Shown here piece after piece: positions 6,570 to 41,778 of a stretch of 64,000 nt of DNA. The stretch lies in assembly GCA_963669175.1 (NCBI GenBank), contig OY769902.1, forward strand, positions 1,888,001 through 1,952,000, given 5' to 3'. The notes below the pieces were generated by a model. It was not told the origin of the DNA, did not search any database, and saw only the letters and a program-made list of their open reading frames with translations. The position numbers and the translations under genes are program-made. This DNA is from a bacterium. GTDB lineage: Bacteria; Electryoneota; Electryoneia; Electryoneales; Electryoneaceae. Position 1 is the first letter of the stretch; the number at the start of each line of letters is the position of its first letter.

Positions 6570-6779
6570 GAGATCCCCGTTCAAGCCGGGGATGACATAT
6601 ATACCGGGGATGACATATATACCGGGGATGACATATATACCGGGGATGACATATATACCGGGGATGACATATATACCGGGGATGACATATATACCGGGGA
6701 TGACATATATACCGGGGATGACATATATACCGGGGATGACATATATACCGAGGATGACATATATGCCGAGGATGACATA
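6570..6779. repeat. GTCATCCCC-type palindromic element followed by an 18-bp tandem repeat (9 perfect + 2 degenerate units)
   Basis: gagatccccgttcaagccggggatgac, then unit ccggggatgacatatata from 6586; the last two units read ccgaggatgac. Confidence 0.95.
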
Positions 6780-6818
6780 AAGTAGGAAAGTTGGTGATGA
6801 TACTTGATACGGATCTGT

Positions 6819-23896: not shown

Positions 23897-24166
23897 AAAT
23901 GATATTTATAGTAGAAACTATTGTACTGTATGACTTGTTGTTTCTTTTTTCACTTTTCTTGTCCGCCGAGGCGGATTCACTGACTACTTTTTTCACTTCT
24001 TCATATCATTCCCGGCCAAGTATGGCCGGACTGCCTTTCTTTACCTTTTTTACTTTTTCTACCTTCTTTACTTCTTCCTTCTAAATCTTTTTTTTTCGAA
24101 GGATACGGTCGATTTGCTTTTTGCTTAATGAATAACTAAGTTTTATATCCAGTGCATGGAGAGACT

Positions 24167-27100
24167 ATGAAACAAATGAACCGCAGGTATTTTTGTAAGC
24201 AGTATGTCGTTCAAGCGCTTAGGAACACCCACACACAGTTCAGATGGCATTGCTTTCCCCGCCTTTTCTATCTGATGCCAGCCCTCGTGTTGTCAGTTTG
24301 TACCCAACTCCGGGAGGCTCTCGTGAGTATGCTGGATAGTTCAGGATTCCCGACTTGCTCATCAAATGCGGTGCAGAGGAAAGAACAGGGAACATCGCTG
24401 CTATCTCGTGAGCGTCCACTTTCGAAACCGGCAAATCGGGCCATGCGAAATTGGCACGTACGCAAGCATCCCCGGCTACCTTTTTCACCTTTTTCACTGA
24501 CTACTTTTTTCACTTCATTATGTCATCCTCGGCTTGAACGGGGATCTCGAGGTTCAACGCATCAATCATCCCCGCTTCGCCATCCGCTCCCGACTTGCTC
24601 ATCAAATGCAGCGCAGAGGGAAGAACAGGGAACATCGCTGCCACCTCGAGAGCGTCCACCTTCACAACCAGCAAATCTGGCCATGCGTTTCTCTGTTTCT
24701 TTTTTCACTTCGTTATGTCATCTCCGGCCAACATGTCATCCCCGGCCTGAACGGGGATCTCGCAGTATTACCAGTCGATCAGCCCAGTTTTCTGTTTCTT
24801 TTTTCACCTTTTTCACTTTCTTTACTTTTTTCACTTCGGCTCAAGCCGAGACCTTTGTCTCCGGCGAAGTTTCCGGCGTGTGGGATGTGGACGGCTCCCC
24901 CTATCTCGTTACCGACACCCTGATCGTCCCCGGAGGCGACACGCTCCTGATTGAGCCGGGAGTGATAGTCGAATTTCAGGATCAGACCGATTCGCTCAAG
25001 TATCCCGTCATTGTCCTTGGAGCGTTGTTGGCGAATGGTGCGCTTGGTGATTCGATTCTGTTTGTATCAGAGGACTTCGCTTTCGGGGGATTCAGGGCGC
25101 CAATGGATTCCGAAGGCTCACGTATCGAGATGGCCTATTGCGTGGTAGATTCTGTTCAATGGGGATTTGATCTTTATCATGGCTCAACTCATCTCCAACA
25201 CTGTCGAGTTGTCGCTTCCTATCGCTTTTTCAAAAGTGAATTCAACACAGATACTATCGAATATTGCATTTTCCACGCTATTGTCCCGGATAGCGGCTAT
25301 CCTCTGTTGAATATCTCCCTCCTCTACGGTGAGGACTATACATTCATTCATAACACCGCGCCCTATGGGAATGTTGCGCTGAACGGGAACTCAAATCCAG
25401 TTTATCAAAATTTTTTAGGCCAGCTAAGCGTTCGGTCAGATACAACAATCATTCATGATAACCAGTTCTATAATTGCAGCACGATTCCCCCCCTGGCTCA
25501 GACCAGTCATGTTGACTTCTATAATAACCAGGTGCGGCTTGAGGATTCAGTCAACATTGCACGTTGTGTTACATTTAGAGAATCCGAAGCAATGGTCCAC
25601 AATAACACATTTCCAAACCTGCTTGCTCACGATTCTTCTGTTGATATCTTTGATAACATCATCATTTCAGACCGAACTCCCCATCACGCAACGATTGTAT
25701 TGAATACATGCACCGGAACGGTACACCGCAATGTGATTTCTGGTGATGCTTATGCAGATAACTTTCGTCTTGATCTGGGTGGGAATATTACTGTCAGCAA
25801 CAACACAATTAAAGTGAATGGGGACCGAGGTATCTGGCTTCGAACGGATGTAGAAACCACCATCGAGAACAATATCTTTCTTGGAGATGGGGGATCTTGT
25901 ACAGCGATTGAACGATCAGTGAATGGACTTCAGCCAGCCAGTATCAGTTACAACAGTTTCTATGAGTTTGAAGAAATCACGGGCGATGTGGAGCTGGACG
26001 AGGGTAACCTTTTTGAGAATCCCTTCCTGGCGGGCGGTGATCCCTGCGACTACCACCTCCAGGCGAACAGTCCCTGTATTGATGCCGGTGATCCGGATAG
26101 TGTGGACGATCCGGACGGCACACGAGCCGATATCGGGTGTTATTACTACGATCAATCCATTGATAACCCACCGGTTCAGACCATCCCTGAAGAAATCTTC
26201 GCGCAGACAGGACAACAGCTCTGTATCCAGATCACCACCACTGATGACAACGGCCCGTTTGACTTCACCTTCCCGGATCTACCCGAGTGGTTGAGCGAAG
26301 AGGATGAGCTGGACTGGGTAAGCGACACCACAGCCGTATCGGGAACCGTACCCGAAGAAACGGAAGATTTCAGTTTCACGGTGATCGTGGAGGATGGCGA
26401 AGGACAGACCGATTCGTCGATTGTCACGGTGGATGTTGACCAACGTAACCTGTTATATGGTGAGATCAGCGGTGTATTGCATGTTGAAGACAGCCCGTTT
26501 TACGTGGTGCAGGATATTATCGTCCCTGAAGGCGACAGCCTGGTTATCGAACCGGGATGTGAGTTGCAGTTCAGGTACGTGGAGGATGAGGAGCAGAGGA
26601 TCGGTTTGGATGTATATGGAAAACTTATCGCTGAGGGGACGGTTGTTGACTCGATTCAGTTCAAGCTTGATCAGAACAATCAAACTGAACAGATTTGGCA
26701 AGGTGTCCGCCTAACTGAAAATCAATCAGATACAAGTATTATCTCATATTCAGTTTTTCAGAATGCTTATTGTGCAATCGAGCTTTCAGACACATCAAGA
26801 GCGATTGTGTCTCATCTTTTTATTCATGACTGCCCCACCGGTATGTTTATCAGGGATAGCTCATGGGTGCAAATTGACTCATGTAGCTATTTTGCCACCC
26901 TTGATAACAATACCTTTATTGCTGGTCTAAATTCTCATATTTATGTTACAAACTCTCATTCAGTTGATATTAGTGAAACTCAGGATAATACGCATATATC
27001 AACATTTACATGCTACAATTATATACGAGAATGTGTGTTTTATGGTGGGTTTTCTAATATGATAAATATGCAAGGGGTTGTTGAGTTTATTAACAATCGG

Positions 27101-27901
27101 GTCACTAATGTACAAATTGGGATGTACTTCGGCAATTGGTCATCAGGATATATATATAACAATAATTTTAAAAATGATTTGGATAGTTTATCAACGGGAC
27201 TTCTACTTCAGGATGGAGATTTCGTTGTGAAAAATAATATATTCTCTAATAATTATTACGGGATAAAATTATACCCTTATGCCAGTATGGAAGAGTATCC
27301 AGAAATAGAAAACAACATATTTGTTAATAACAACTATGGACTATATCATTATTATGGATTTGATGCATGTATGACGGCAAGATATAATTGCTTTTTTCAA
27401 AATGATACTTCTGCAACCAACTGCATATTGGATCAAACAAACATTTTCGCTGATCCACAATTTGCAGACACACTTTTTCATTTCTATGAGACATCACCAC
27501 TTATTGATGCAGGGAATCCAATCGACAACTGGAACGATATAGACAGCTCAATATGCGACATAGGCTTGTGGGGAGGTCCTTATGGGGATAGTTATGAGTA
27601 TTTTGTTGGGATCGAGGAATCTCTAATAAAACCTCCTTCATCCTTCAGATTGTTACCGCCATACCCGAATCCTTTCAACGCATCCTTGAACATCATGTTA
27701 GAACTTCCTGTTTCTGCCGAAGTAAGCATTACTCTTTATAACATACTTGGTCAAAAGGTACGAGGAATACAAACAAGCAAACTCACTGCGGGACTGCAGA
27801 CCATATCTATAAATGCGGCGGACCTTGCTTCAGGGATTTACTTCATCGAGACAAAAACACTTGGTTATATAAAACGATCACGTGCCGTATTGTTGCGATA
27901 A
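24167..27901 (+). CDS. T9SS-CTD protein with two right-handed beta-helix modules; repeat-derived N-terminal extension (start uncertain: 24167 or 24683)
   Basis: Two modules, each starting SPY/FxVxxxxxVPxGDxLxIEPG and ending SPxIDAGxP...DIG. C-terminus YPNPFN...YNILGQKV...SGIYF. Mature N-terminus likely AQA|ETFVSG. Confidence 0.8.
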   Translation: MKQMNRRYFCKQYVVQALRNTHTQFRWHCFPRLFYLMPALVLSVCTQLREALVSMLDSSGFPTCSSNAVQRKEQGTSLLSRERPLSKPANRAMRNWHVRKHPRLPFSPFSLTTFFTSLCHPRLERGSRGSTHQSSPLRHPLPTCSSNAAQREEQGTSLPPRERPPSQPANLAMRFSVSFFTSLCHLRPTCHPRPERGSRSITSRSAQFSVSFFTFFTFFTFFTSAQAETFVSGEVSGVWDVDGSPYLVTDTLIVPGGDTLLIEPGVIVEFQDQTDSLKYPVIVLGALLANGALGDSILFVSEDFAFGGFRAPMDSEGSRIEMAYCVVDSVQWGFDLYHGSTHLQHCRVVASYRFFKSEFNTDTIEYCIFHAIVPDSGYPLLNISLLYGEDYTFIHNTAPYGNVALNGNSNPVYQNFLGQLSVRSDTTIIHDNQFYNCSTIPPLAQTSHVDFYNNQVRLEDSVNIARCVTFRESEAMVHNNTFPNLLAHDSSVDIFDNIIISDRTPHHATIVLNTCTGTVHRNVISGDAYADNFRLDLGGNITVSNNTIKVNGDRGIWLRTDVETTIENNIFLGDGGSCTAIERSVNGLQPASISYNSFYEFEEITGDVELDEGNLFENPFLAGGDPCDYHLQANSPCIDAGDPDSVDDPDGTRADIGCYYYDQSIDNPPVQTIPEEIFAQTGQQLCIQITTTDDNGPFDFTFPDLPEWLSEEDELDWVSDTTAVSGTVPEETEDFSFTVIVEDGEGQTDSSIVTVDVDQRNLLYGEISGVLHVEDSPFYVVQDIIVPEGDSLVIEPGCELQFRYVEDEEQRIGLDVYGKLIAEGTVVDSIQFKLDQNNQTEQIWQGVRLTENQSDTSIISYSVFQNAYCAIELSDTSRAIVSHLFIHDCPTGMFIRDSSWVQIDSCSYFATLDNNTFIAGLNSHIYVTNSHSVDISETQDNTHISTFTCYNYIRECVFYGGFSNMINMQGVVEFINNRVTNVQIGMYFGNWSSGYIYNNNFKNDLDSLSTGLLLQDGDFVVKNNIFSNNYYGIKLYPYASMEEYPEIENNIFVNNNYGLYHYYGFDACMTARYNCFFQNDTSATNCILDQTNIFADPQFADTLFHFYETSPLIDAGNPIDNWNDIDSSICDIGLWGGPYGDSYEYFVGIEESLIKPPSSFRLLPPYPNPFNASLNIMLELPVSAEVSITLYNILGQKVRGIQTSKLTAGLQTISINAADLASGIYFIETKTLGYIKRSRAVLLR

Positions 27902-27996
27902 AAAAAAAGCCGTGCAGGTATGTGCTTGGAGGCTTAACCTGCACGACTTCAACAAAAGATCTGTCAAAAGTGACAGACGAACATCAAGGTAAGGAG

Positions 27997-28092
27997 ATGA
28001 AAATGCAGAAGAAAACCCTTTACACGCTGACCATGCTCCTGATTCTAAGCAGTGTGTGTCTCAGTCAGACTGTTATCATTGATAAAAACTAG
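27997..28092 (+). pseudogene. Truncated secreted-protein gene (signal peptide only), cut at the AAAACTAG repeat ladder
   Basis: AAGGAG RBS, then MKMQKKTLYTLTMLLILSSVCLSQTVIID-KN*. The stop codon is supplied by the repeat (aac tag). Confidence 0.6.
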
Positions 28093-28453
28093 GGACTAAA
28101 AACTAGGGACAGACGGTTAAAAAACTAGCAAAAAACTAGAAAACTAGGGACGAAAACTAGAAAACTAGGGACAGACGGTAGAAAACTAGGGACAGACGGT
28201 AGTTTTTATTTCTTTCGGGGCCTTCCTTCAGGTAAGGGATGGAGCCTTCGTCCAGTTCTATGTTCCAGATCAGATACCCACTCTTTGCTTCCCAAGGGAC
28301 GTCCGGTTCAAAAAAACTAGGGACAGACGGTAGTTTTTATTTCTTTCGGGGCCTTCCTTCAGGCAAGGGATGGAGCCTTCGTCCAGTTCTATGTTCCAGA
28401 TCAGATACCCACTCTTTGCTTCCCAAGGGACGTCCGGTTCTGGTATTGCGATT
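28084..28453. repeat. Nested ladder of partial copies of the transposase 3' end and terminal repeat
   Basis: Nine extra copies of AAAACTAG with variable extension into the element. Two carry the repeat plus the last codons of the transposase (28182-28309, 28313-28452). Confidence 0.9.
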
Positions 28454-28456
28454 AAA

Positions 28457-29366
28457 AACTAGGGACAGACGGTAGTTTTTATTTCTTTCGGGGCCTTCCT
28501 TCAGGCAAGGGATGGAGCCTTCGTCCAGTTCTATGTTCCAGATCAGATACCCACTCTTTGCTTCCCAAGGGACGTCCGGTTCTGGTATTGCGATGTAATA
28601 GCTCCCAGAATTCAGGATCATGCGGTTGATCCAGGATTGCTTTCCAGTCGTCGAGGTCTGTCTTTTCCGGCCAACGTGAGTTGACAAGTAGCGGATCGCT
28701 TGCGTGGCCAAGATGATGGTGCACACTTGACCAGGGCCAATCTGTAGCATCTTTGATCAGCCCGGCTCGTACCGGATTAAGTTCAACATATTGCGCGGCA
28801 CGATACAGATGTTGATCATCCAGGGCACAGGAGTAAAAACGTCCCTGCCAGAGGTGGCCGACCAATCCAGTCCTTCGGTGCATGTGCTGAGCATACACCA
28901 TGTGAGTAGTGGCCAGGGTACGTGCCATAGACGTTGTTGTCAGAGGATATACGATCAGGTTAACATGATTGTTCATCAGGCAGTATGCCCACACTTCCAG
29001 TTTATACTTCCTGCCATACTTTTCCAGCAATTCCAGATACTTCTGAAAGTCCTCCTCATCAGCGAAAACATCTTGACGGTAGTTGCCACGTTGTGTCACA
29101 TGATAAGGCAATTCCGGCTCCTGGAAACGCGCTTCTCGGGGCATGATTTCTCCTGTAAATATGCGAAAACAGGGACACTGACCCTTCGTGGTCTGTCCCA
29201 TTTTCGCGGTTAGATGATGCCAATGATACCGATCTAGACAGTCTCTTTGACAACCACACAATAGTACAATTCTACACGAGACACCTGTAATAAGCCATAC
29301 TGAAGATAACTTAACTCAAGAAATATTTCAACAAATATTCTCAAAAACTACCGTCTGTCCCTAGTT
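28457..29366 (-). mobile_element. Y1 HUH transposase element bounded by 24-bp inverted repeats AACTAGGGACAGACGGTAGTTTTT
   Basis: Left IR 28457-28480; right IR 29343-29366 (aaaaactaccgtctgtccctagtt). Internal GGGACA/CTGTCCC hairpin at 29166-29206. Confidence 0.8.
28479..29144 (-). CDS. REP-associated tyrosine transposase (RAYT / Y1_Tnp, IS200-like HUH)
   Basis: MPREAR...YHVTQRGNYRQDVF...AYCLMNNHVNL...GHLWQGRFYS...YVELNPVRAG...WPWSS...GRPRKK. Start 29144 with AGGAGA RBS. Confidence 0.92.
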   Translation of the reverse strand: MPREARFQEPELPYHVTQRGNYRQDVFADEEDFQKYLELLEKYGRKYKLEVWAYCLMNNHVNLIVYPLTTTSMARTLATTHMVYAQHMHRRTGLVGHLWQGRFYSCALDDQHLYRAAQYVELNPVRAGLIKDATDWPWSSVHHHLGHASDPLLVNSRWPEKTDLDDWKAILDQPHDPEFWELLHRNTRTGRPLGSKEWVSDLEHRTGRRLHPLPEGRPRKK

Positions 29367-29384
29367 AAAAAGAGTTGCATTAAG

Positions 29385-29420
29385 AAGCGGTTTACGTTTG
29401 CATGACGTAAGCCGCTTTTG
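29385..29420. terminator. Hairpin, probable terminator for hisC
   Basis: aagcggtttacgt...acgtaagccgctt. Confidence 0.55.
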
Positions 29421-29459
29421 TTTCTCTACGAAAAATGTAAAACTGATCGGGTGATCAGG

Positions 29460-30563
29460 CTATTTCTTTTCTCCTTCGAAGATATCGCGCAGCACATGTA
29501 GCAGGAAGGTGGTTTCTTCACGGCTGCCGATGGTGATACGGACACAGTCCGGGAGACGGAAGGCGGTCATCGGGCGTGCGATGACCCCACGCTTCAGCAT
29601 TTCATCACTGAACCAGGTCGCTTTCTTTGCGCTGCCCATCGGGATCAGGACGAAGTTGGCCACACTGACCGGGATCTCAAACCCAAGGCGGCGCAGTTCT
29701 CCGACGAGGCGACGGTGATTGTCCCGCCAGCACTTGATCGTCTCGGTCAGGAAGTCACGATCCTCAAGAGCGCCCAGCCCGGCCGCCTGGGCCAGGGAAG
29801 TCGGTTCGAAGGGCAGCTTAACTTTCAGGATGTTCGAAATGATGCTGTCATGCGCGACACCGTAACCGATACGCACCCCGGCGAGGCCGTACGCCTTGGA
29901 GAAAGTACGCAGGGTGATAACCTGATCATGACGATAGTCCAGGCTGTCCGGGTACTCGATCCAGTCACGAGCGTACTCGAAATACGCTTCATCCATGACC
30001 ACCAGCGGTCCCTCAGGCAGCTTGTTCAGGAATTGTTCGAACTGAAGGATATTGAATGCCGTCCCGGTCGGATTGTTGGGGTTGGCAATGTAGATCATCT
30101 TCGTTTTCGGGGTGACAGCCTTCAGGATAGCGTCCAGGTCGAAGGTGTAGTTTTTCAAAGGAACCGTTACCGTCTTCAGGTTCTGCGCATTGCAGAGGAC
30201 ATAGAACCCGATGAAAGTACCTTCAGCGGTCACGATTTCATCATTGGGGCGTAAATAAGCCCGCATGACTGCGGATAAAATGGATTCACTGCCTGAGCCG
30301 ACGGCCACGTGATTAACACTGATTCCGTGTGTTTTCGCCAAAGCGTTACGAAGGTCTATTCCTGAGTTGGGATAAATATGCAGGGTGCTGATGGCTTCTT
30401 TGATGCGCTGCATGGCACGTGGTGACGGGCCACGTGGATTTTCATTGCTGGCCAGTTTAATGATTTTTTCAAGGCCTAGTTGACGACGGATCTCTTCAAT
30501 GGATCTTCCCGGCTGGTAAGGCACCAGCTTCTGAATATGTTTCGGTGCAATTGGCACGTTCAT
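29460..30563 (-). CDS. hisC: Histidinol-phosphate aminotransferase
   Basis: KLASNENP, NPNNPTG, DEAY, RTFSKAYGLAGVRIGY. Confidence 0.93.
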   Translation of the reverse strand: MNVPIAPKHIQKLVPYQPGRSIEEIRRQLGLEKIIKLASNENPRGPSPRAMQRIKEAISTLHIYPNSGIDLRNALAKTHGISVNHVAVGSGSESILSAVMRAYLRPNDEIVTAEGTFIGFYVLCNAQNLKTVTVPLKNYTFDLDAILKAVTPKTKMIYIANPNNPTGTAFNILQFEQFLNKLPEGPLVVMDEAYFEYARDWIEYPDSLDYRHDQVITLRTFSKAYGLAGVRIGYGVAHDSIISNILKVKLPFEPTSLAQAAGLGALEDRDFLTETIKCWRDNHRRLVGELRRLGFEIPVSVANFVLIPMGSAKKATWFSDEMLKRGVIARPMTAFRLPDCVRITIGSREETTFLLHVLRDIFEGEKK

Positions 30564-41735: not shown

Positions 41736-41778
41736 AAAAAACTACCGTCTGTCCCTAGTTTTGGTTCTAGTTTTGGTT
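41736..41778. repeat. Solo copy of the transposase terminal repeat with a 12-bp junction duplication
   Basis: aaaaaactaccgtctgtccctagttttggtt-ctagttttggtt; identical core to 29343-29366. Confidence 0.9.

Follow-up and report, generated by a model that had tools for sequence, protein, structure and literature searches.

The 64,000-nucleotide window analysed here (positions 1,888,001 to 1,952,000 of contig OY769902.1, assembly GCA_963669175.1, from a bacterium of the Electryoneaceae) carries an element in which a Y1 HUH transposase gene lies between two terminal inverted repeats. Against the outer edge of the repeat at the gene's 3' end stands a ladder of nine nested partial copies of the element end. 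They begin at a common boundary and reach different distances inward, they are tandem duplications of local sequence, and the same one-sided footprint recurs across this genome and in distant bacteria. We place a probability of roughly 0.55 on the reading that the ladder consists of local duplications made at the outer edge of the repeat when a Y1 HUH enzyme nicks the DNA, a host polymerase extends the 3'-OH and the strand is re-joined to the 5'-phosphotyrosine. Positions are those of the window; coordinates prefixed C1 lie elsewhere in the genome.

Anatomy of the ladder and of its element

The preliminary description of this DNA had listed ten starts of AAAACTAG, and all ten are found, by exact match on the forward strand, at 28085, 28099, 28121, 28132, 28140, 28153, 28161, 28182, 28313 and 28455. 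Together with two on the reverse strand (41755 and 41767), they bring the count in the window to 12, compared with 1.16 expected; a count of 12 was reached in 0 of 100 shuffles. Lengths were measured as the exact stretch that each unit has in common with the intact copy from 28455 onward. The nine partial copies range from 8 to 140 nt (Table 1), have a common start and are followed by the intact element. Junctions between units hold 0–3 unmatched bases, and the A-run that precedes CTAG is 4–7 long. As had been described, the tenth copy is intact and the two longest units repeat the last codons of the transposase gene, in our measurement at least 33. Unit 8 has a T at 28233 where unit 9 and the intact copy have C.

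Table 1. Repeats, gene, hairpin and ladder units located in the window
Feature	Position	Strand	Family	Remarks
Ladder unit 1	28085..28096	+		12-nt prefix of the element end; one extra A before it, T after it
Ladder unit 2	28099..28117	+		19-nt prefix
Ladder unit 3	28121..28128	+		8 nt
Ladder unit 4	28132..28139	+		8 nt
Ladder unit 5	28140..28151	+		12 nt
Ladder unit 6	28153..28160	+		8 nt
Ladder unit 7	28161..28181	+		21 nt, as far as GGTAG
Ladder unit 8	28182..28309	+		128 nt with one mismatch; complete terminal hairpin and last codons of the gene
Ladder unit 9	28313..28452	+		140 nt, no difference from the intact copy
Intact terminal repeat, gene 3' end	28453..28481	+		Overlaps the stop codon
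Y1 HUH transposase gene	28479..29144	-	Pfam Y1_Tnp	221 aa from Met
Strong hairpin	29163..29207	-		Between gene start and 5' terminal repeat; -14 kcal/mol, z -4.5
Terminal repeat, gene 5' end	29343..29366	+		Perfect 24-nt inverted repeat of 28457-28480
Second repeat copy	41742..41774	-		One 12-nt duplication (AACCAAAACTAG twice) on the outer side

The ladder is confirmed as real sequence. The genome is a single 5.45-Mb contig, and nested repeats are hard to assemble, which might suggest an artefact of a repeat-rich stretch. However, contigs built independently from two sequencing runs of one sample (X3 and X4, in which 86% of the words sampled from the stretch are present) agree on the short ladder, and their depth ratio is as expected. 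A 1766-nt Logan contig found in both runs spans 27900–28211 with 0 differences, so that every short unit (1 to 7) and the beginning of unit 8 lie within it, and a 62-nt Logan contig bridges the junction of unit 9 with the intact copy (28423–28484) at single-copy depth. The 140-nt unit has a depth of 117 in X3 and 80 in X4, compared with 46 and 33 for the remainder of the gene, or about 2.5 times single-copy. The sample may be the genome's own source, so these contigs are independent of the assembler, not of the sample, and do not represent a second strain. The T at 28233, which had been held to argue against a pure assembly artefact, is present in the assembled sequence. It is not visible in the listed contigs of X3 and X4, which do not cover 28212–28263 and 28368–28419, and neither is the 28309/28313 junction, because contigs drop minor variants. 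Similar ladders occur in many assemblies from other groups. On the Logan contigs and depth we rejected an assembly artefact, which has hardly any chance of being the explanation.

As single-stranded DNA, the terminal repeat is predicted to form a hairpin in which an A/T-rich stem of 9 bp closes the 11-nt loop GGGACAGACGG (folding energy -4.2 kcal/mol, z -3.7; 2 of 200 shuffles fold as well). Its stem consists of 9 bp of A/T plus one C-G, and its sole GTAG lies in the 3' arm, so the repeat does not have the form of a GTAG-tagged, G+C-rich palindrome. There is no stutter on the outer side of the repeat at the gene's 5' end. The strong hairpin in the gene's 5' leader (29163–29207) holds GGGACAGAC, which is also the loop sequence in the terminal repeat. 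Hairpins that look like this one occur at C1:1271995, 1590816 and 2196896, and similar hairpins flank a paralogue of the transposase gene at C1:3618164-3618823.

The gene was recovered by tblastn as one full-length copy, the next best match (the same paralogue) being 46% identical; the genome holds ten Y1_Tnp genes of different kinds. The earlier assignment to RAYT-type Y1 HUH transposases holds: the product scores 49.4 bits for Pfam Y1_Tnp (cut-off 23, residues 13-122) and 69 bits for NCBIfam REP_Tyr_transpos (E 3.9e-19), the latter under the equivalog cut-off of 80. Its score for NCBIfam transpos_IS200, 21.2 bits, is well short of that model's cut-off of 55. The catalytic tyrosine is kept, with Y120, E122, N124 and P125 invariant in the alignment (a Y-x-E-x-NP helix). 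The HUH motif reads H-V-N (NNHVN) in place of His-hydrophobic-His, the Asn codon being AAC at 28959-28961. By contrast, NNH-x-H is found in 9 of 9 aligned relatives, and a relative of about 95% identity (metagenome run X2) has G at 28961, giving CAC and His. H63N is therefore strain-specific, and the substitution may impair the enzyme.

The protein ends in PEGRPRKK, with a second TGRP motif about 30 residues earlier, and the C-terminal RGRP-K is kept in 8 of 9 relatives. This tail resembles an AT-hook, and the repeat edge is an A/T tract. Pfam models gave nothing in the last 83 residues at E values up to 10, where a C-terminal helix-turn-helix domain was sought.

Recurrence and one-sidedness

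The 17-nt core of the repeat occurs 35 times in the genome, and at three loci copies are paired as inverted doublets with a spacing of about 65 nt, in the manner of REPINs or MITEs. Tabulating the genome-wide copies, a check proposed in the preliminary description, gave the same polarity. Prefix fragments (at least 6 nt) lying no more than 300 nt from a full copy number 38 on its 5' side and 5 on its 3' side; for suffix fragments the counts are 4 and 2. AACTAG itself is rare, with 332 occurrences in 5.4 Mb. Parsing gave 48 seed units in 17 clusters, 41 of them only 1–7 nt from the next unit. Measured from AACTAG, unit lengths are 6 (17 units), 7 (5), 10 (6), 14 (3), 15 (2) and 17 nt (3), with singles up to 138 nt. 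The ladder had first been viewed as a feature of a transposase end. This proved too narrow, as ladders also stand at copies with no gene (35 loci read; C1:1142507(-), for example, has eight partial units), at the inverted doublets, in a congener and in distant relatives.

At each locus the units include bases specific to that locus from just outside the repeat (gaga, gta, cataa, aaccaa), and long units run on into the locus's own inner sequence. The units are therefore local tandem duplications and not copies of an element end that were moved in. To reconstruct their history, exact tandem duplications were undone stepwise in the 26 innermost arms, one mismatch being allowed from 12 nt. This yielded 27 duplication events at the outer edge of 13 of the 26 arms. 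All 27 start at -11 to -6 relative to CTAG|GGAC and end at -1 to +133, seven of them exactly at the boundary. In other words, every unit includes the 6-11 nt that adjoin the GGGAC core on its outer side, and extends from there 0 to 140 nt inward. One fixed end with variable length was thus a sound description as to nesting on one common end; the boundary is less exact than had been stated, being fuzzy over these 6-11 nt. Among background AACTAG sites away from the repeat, 7 of 249 have a duplication (Fisher p 9e-11 versus the repeat arms).

GC skew places the origin at about 0.775 Mb and the terminus at about 3.425 Mb. By this division, ladders occur in 7 of the 15 arms whose AACTAGGGAC strand is the lagging-strand template and in 6 of the 11 others, and thus a link to the lagging-strand template was sought among the arms and not found. 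The side on which a ladder stands is therefore set by the element's own orientation and not by the direction of replication. No common dinucleotide before unit starts or at unit ends was seen by eye in the loci read; the unit ends follow AG, AC, GT, CG, TC or AT, with no common motif. A generic ladder detector (42 + 47 loci) returned mostly ordinary tandem repeats and was not discriminating, and it pointed to a second hairpin family that is discussed below.

A congener (G001) carries the identical repeat 21 times, with a transposase gene only 69% identical in DNA. Duplications occur in 10 of its 20 arms, starting at -11 to -6, as here, and ending at -2 to +11. The X2 relative of about 95% identity has a long unit of its own that differs from those in the window: a contig joins 28717 to the start of the repeat, and depth over 28457-28717 is 22x, compared with 9x, for a unit of about 261 nt. 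As the joining contig is short, we treat this unit as a hint.

Relatives of the transposase at 29–56% identity are encoded at 55 loci from other phyla. Near full-length matches at 42 of these were examined for inverted repeats, and 7 gave none. The genes are flanked by inverted repeats with a common (A)nTAGGGACA core, TAGGGACA, and many of the loci show ladders on the outer side. Among these relatives, the edge was assessed at 30-50% protein identity, in the 28 loci (56 arms) with a repeat of at least 12 nt holding GGAC or GTGAC, a rule that excluded L030, a locus with a clear ladder by eye. An exact duplication abuts the edge in formally 15 of 56 arms, or 14 of 55 after dropping one (L008 DN) as a run-of-N artefact. 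Random anchors in the same loci gave 67 of 2227 (3%; p 2e-9 versus the 14 of 55). At three loci (L023, L021 and L040) the ladders of several steps are built from nested suffixes with TAG|GGAC as their end point, each unit exactly copying, with no filler, the 8-11 nt that lie directly before TAG|GGAC. Both repeat arms of L023 have clear ladders, and the gene there (L023:2501-3365) is probably disrupted, with 11 stops in the matched frame over 865 nt.

A nick-and-prime reading and its competitors

The cycle that we propose would begin when the enzyme nicks the strand 5'-flank-AACTAGGGACAG-3' about 6–11 nt outside the GGGAC core and stays joined to the element-side 5' phosphate. A host polymerase would extend the flank's free 3'-OH into the element, displacing the old strand, and the copied tract would in many cases stop at the core edge and in others run for 10-140 nt or further. 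The extended 3'-OH would then attack the phosphotyrosine, re-closing the strand with the tract present twice, and the next replication would fix the duplication. Repeated cycles would stack units with a common outer boundary and differing lengths. Such a cycle would account for an outer boundary that all units have in common, for inner ends that vary and most often fall at the core edge, for units derived from local sequence and for their independence of fork direction. In the relatives with a fixed TAG|GGAC end, perhaps the same cycle starts from a nick in the complementary strand, with synthesis outward; the suffix ladders fit either such a mirror event or a hard stop at the core edge.

Parts of this chemistry are documented for the RAYTs studied so far. 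Cleavage by TnpAREP leaves a tyrosine-5'-phosphate link and a 3'-OH, and any supplied 3'-OH resolves the link (PMC8266576). Ton-Hoang et al. (2012; PMC3333891, Fig. 7B) drew a model in which the 3'-OH is extended by host polymerases, the 3'-OH of the new strand attacks the tyrosine-5'-phosphate and a BIME unit is added. The preliminary description had suggested repeated nicking, re-initiation and strand transfer, and knew of no account of this for RAYTs. The anatomy fits its suggestion, and the idea itself was already in print. The sequences show how the units are built, their polarity, their recurrence and their local origin; the link to the enzyme, like the strand and the polymerase step, is something that we infer, and the resident copy carries H63N.

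Several observations weigh against this reading. That this enzyme or its subclass cleaves at the repeat is itself a proposal drawn from sequence, and the resident copy has the H63N substitution although the 140-nt unit seems to be of recent date, as it does not differ from the intact copy. The outer boundary is not sharp (-11 to -6, with an A-run of 4–7), many junctions hold 0-3 filler bases, and 16 of the 27 junctions have an ambiguity of 1-4 nt (microhomology). Neither the starts nor the ends of the units have a common dinucleotide, which does not match the CT/CA sites of studied TnpAREP enzymes. The ladders of L023, L021 and L040 are free of filler only if the fixed point is TAG|GGAC. The history procedure also undercounts: because of junction fillers, it undid only the 142-nt step in the window's own ladder, one of nine units.

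A second hairpin family bears on the question as well. It is unrelated to the repeat, has the form GTCATCCCCGG-N4-8-CGGGGATC and is present in 74 full copies. Its polarity is the same, with 78 lone 5' halves upstream and 5 downstream of full copies (lone 3' halves, 5 and 2), and it too has no link to fork direction (15 of 32 versus 22 of 42). No Y1 gene was found beside it, and none of its copies lies within 1.5 kb of four Y1 paralogues; within 700 nt of five further Y1 genes there is only one look-alike of its hairpin. Within the window, at 6585-6780 on the reverse strand, about eleven 18-nt units, ATGTCATCCCCGGTATAT, are piled 5' of a full hairpin of this family, ATGTCATCCCCGGCTTGAACGGGGATCTCGAG.

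A rival reading is that host replication alone is responsible, with the polymerase stalling at the hairpin or at a bound protein and the nascent end slipping or switching template, with no HUH nick. The repeat can fold, microhomology is found at the 16 junctions, the resident enzyme is H63N, and the second family piles up alike with no adjacent Y1 gene, including the equal 18-nt units. On the other hand, a near-palindromic hairpin should stall polymerases from either side, whereas the ladders stand strictly on one sequence-defined side in both families (38:5 and 78:5), irrespective of fork direction (7/15 versus 6/11; 15/32 versus 22/42). Units of 128-140 nt here, and of about 261 nt in X2, extend well past the hairpin with the outer boundary unchanged, and 11 of the 27 junctions have no microhomology. 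We consider a host-only origin unlikely; were it true, the strict sequence-defined one-sidedness would still need explaining. Another host process, a nick made by CTAGG-directed very-short-patch repair, was set aside because the edges of the relatives read ATAGG or TTAGG.

Two further explanations fare much worse. Truncated single-stranded end copies might be excised in abortive transposition and inserted in trans beside a target motif at the edge of another copy. Elements of the IS200/IS605 type do insert beside a short motif abutting their left end (PMC3333891), and every unit begins with the same motif. However, the units carry their own locus's flank bases and, if long, its own downstream sequence, and each of the 27 events can be undone as a local tandem duplication, exact or nearly so. 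We rejected insertion in trans on the evidence of the flanks and regard it as very improbable.

Selection might instead keep arrays of a short motif because they serve in regulation or bind a protein, the transposase with its AT-hook-like tail being one candidate. A/T tracts are bound by tails of the GRP type, the C-terminus reads GRPRKK and the repeat edge is A/T-rich. Against this, unit number, unit length and filler vary at every locus and between close relatives, and the long units duplicate coding sequence. The unit in X2 already suggests that orthologous loci of different strains do not keep the same ladder. The chance that selection of this kind accounts for the ladders appears slim.

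If the ladders are enzyme footprints, as the nick-extend-rejoin cycle would have it, they amount to in vivo evidence for a step known until now from a drawn model only. The ladders would also predict the cut site and strand for an unstudied subclass, and hundreds of natural events could be mined from genomes without biochemistry. For the spread and array formation of REP, REPIN and terminal inverted repeat (TIR) families, the in vivo mechanism is described as unknown in the RAYT and REP papers cited (PMC8266576, PMC3333891). Tentatively, and at somewhat short of even odds, we suggest that RAYT/TIRYT-type Y1 HUH enzymes work in living cells as 'nick-and-prime' duplicators with site specificity, whose ladders, found in several phyla, would record nick position, strand and tract lengths. 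If so, REP/BIME-like arrays could have their start in this process, which could also duplicate coding sequence beside the repeat. The ladders show a route by which short tandem repeats and duplicated gene ends arise beside domesticated transposases.

Relation to known systems and neighbouring features

The element works like a REPtron (TnpAREP/RAYT with REP/BIME) and looks most like a TIRYT/TIRtron. As in a REPtron, a single-copy Y1 HUH gene lies between two inverted short repeats, the repeat is also dispersed as singlets and inverted doublets, and the proposed cycle is the BIME amplification idea of Ton-Hoang et al. 2012 (PMC3333891, Fig. 7B). Unlike a REPtron, it has no GTAG-tagged G+C-rich palindrome, its repeat has only 35 copies, and its NCBIfam score is 69 where the cut-off is 80. 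Tandem units with a common first-cleavage end are what the model of that figure shows, and the starts at -11 to -6, also seen in G001, agree with it. The units differ in being nested partial copies with one common end and not whole BIME units, and their variable ends do not have the CT-type second cleavage motif of the model.

The TIRYT/TIRtron elements of Di Nocera et al. 2013 (PMC3733652), which form subclass 2.1 in Quentin et al. 2018 (PMC6006769), likewise have a RAYT-like gene flanked by terminal inverted repeats, and their repeats are small families in dimers and clusters. In the present core, AGGGACAG, 7 of 8 positions agree with the published TIRYT motif GGGG[AT][CG]A[CG]. A possible difference is that Pfam found no C-terminal helix-turn-helix domain here.

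With IS200/IS605 elements such as IS608 and ISDra2, the element has in common the Y1 HUH fold and, by analogy, recognition of a hairpin near the end, with the flank cleaved a fixed short distance 5' of the hairpin, the 3'-OH on the flank and the tyrosine on the element. It differs in that its ends are inverted repeats where those elements have a pair of hairpins on one strand, its gene occurs only once, the transpos_IS200 score is 21 versus 55, and the ladders have no link to the lagging-strand template.

Illegitimate recombination at the nick sites of rolling-circle replicons (M13, pC194) and one-ended events of IS91 and Helitrons also give products with one end fixed at the HUH nick and the other variable. 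Most of these, arising on replicons or transposons, are deletions or read-through captures, unlike the products here, which are short, nested, in-place tandem duplications in the chromosome.

Tandem REP/REPIN clusters with flanking DNA have been described before. For nested one-sided ladders of partial repeats we found no description in the excerpts available; supplementary TIR lists or BIME alignments might show some. Both element and chemistry are known, and the footprint and its breadth appear not to be.

Other repeats in the genome show related forms. A third nested-prefix ladder, made from another repeat, is found at C1:2591470-2591520 (aaaactggcag / aaaactg / aaaactgggtg / aaactggggccacccgcc); this repeat is similar to those of the GGGCCACCC type on the flanks of the Y1 paralogue at C1:4081921-4082439. 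Two small IS200-like Y1 genes (C1:2672127 and C1:1503099) adjoin long arrays of 17-44-nt tandem repeats (C1:2671453-2671960 and C1:1502399-1503840).

The ladder interrupts the start of a signal-peptide-like open reading frame (27997..28092, +). A relative in run X1 continues past 28083 with sequence that is missing from the present genome, and the other flank of the element (29370-29460) is unrelated, so DNA next to the insertion site seems to have been lost. Just 5' of the ladder ends a 1249-aa open reading frame (24152-27901, +) whose product combines beta-helix and NosD repeats with a Por/T9SS sorting domain at the C-terminus, and it is followed by a 13-nt inverted repeat at 27907-27949.

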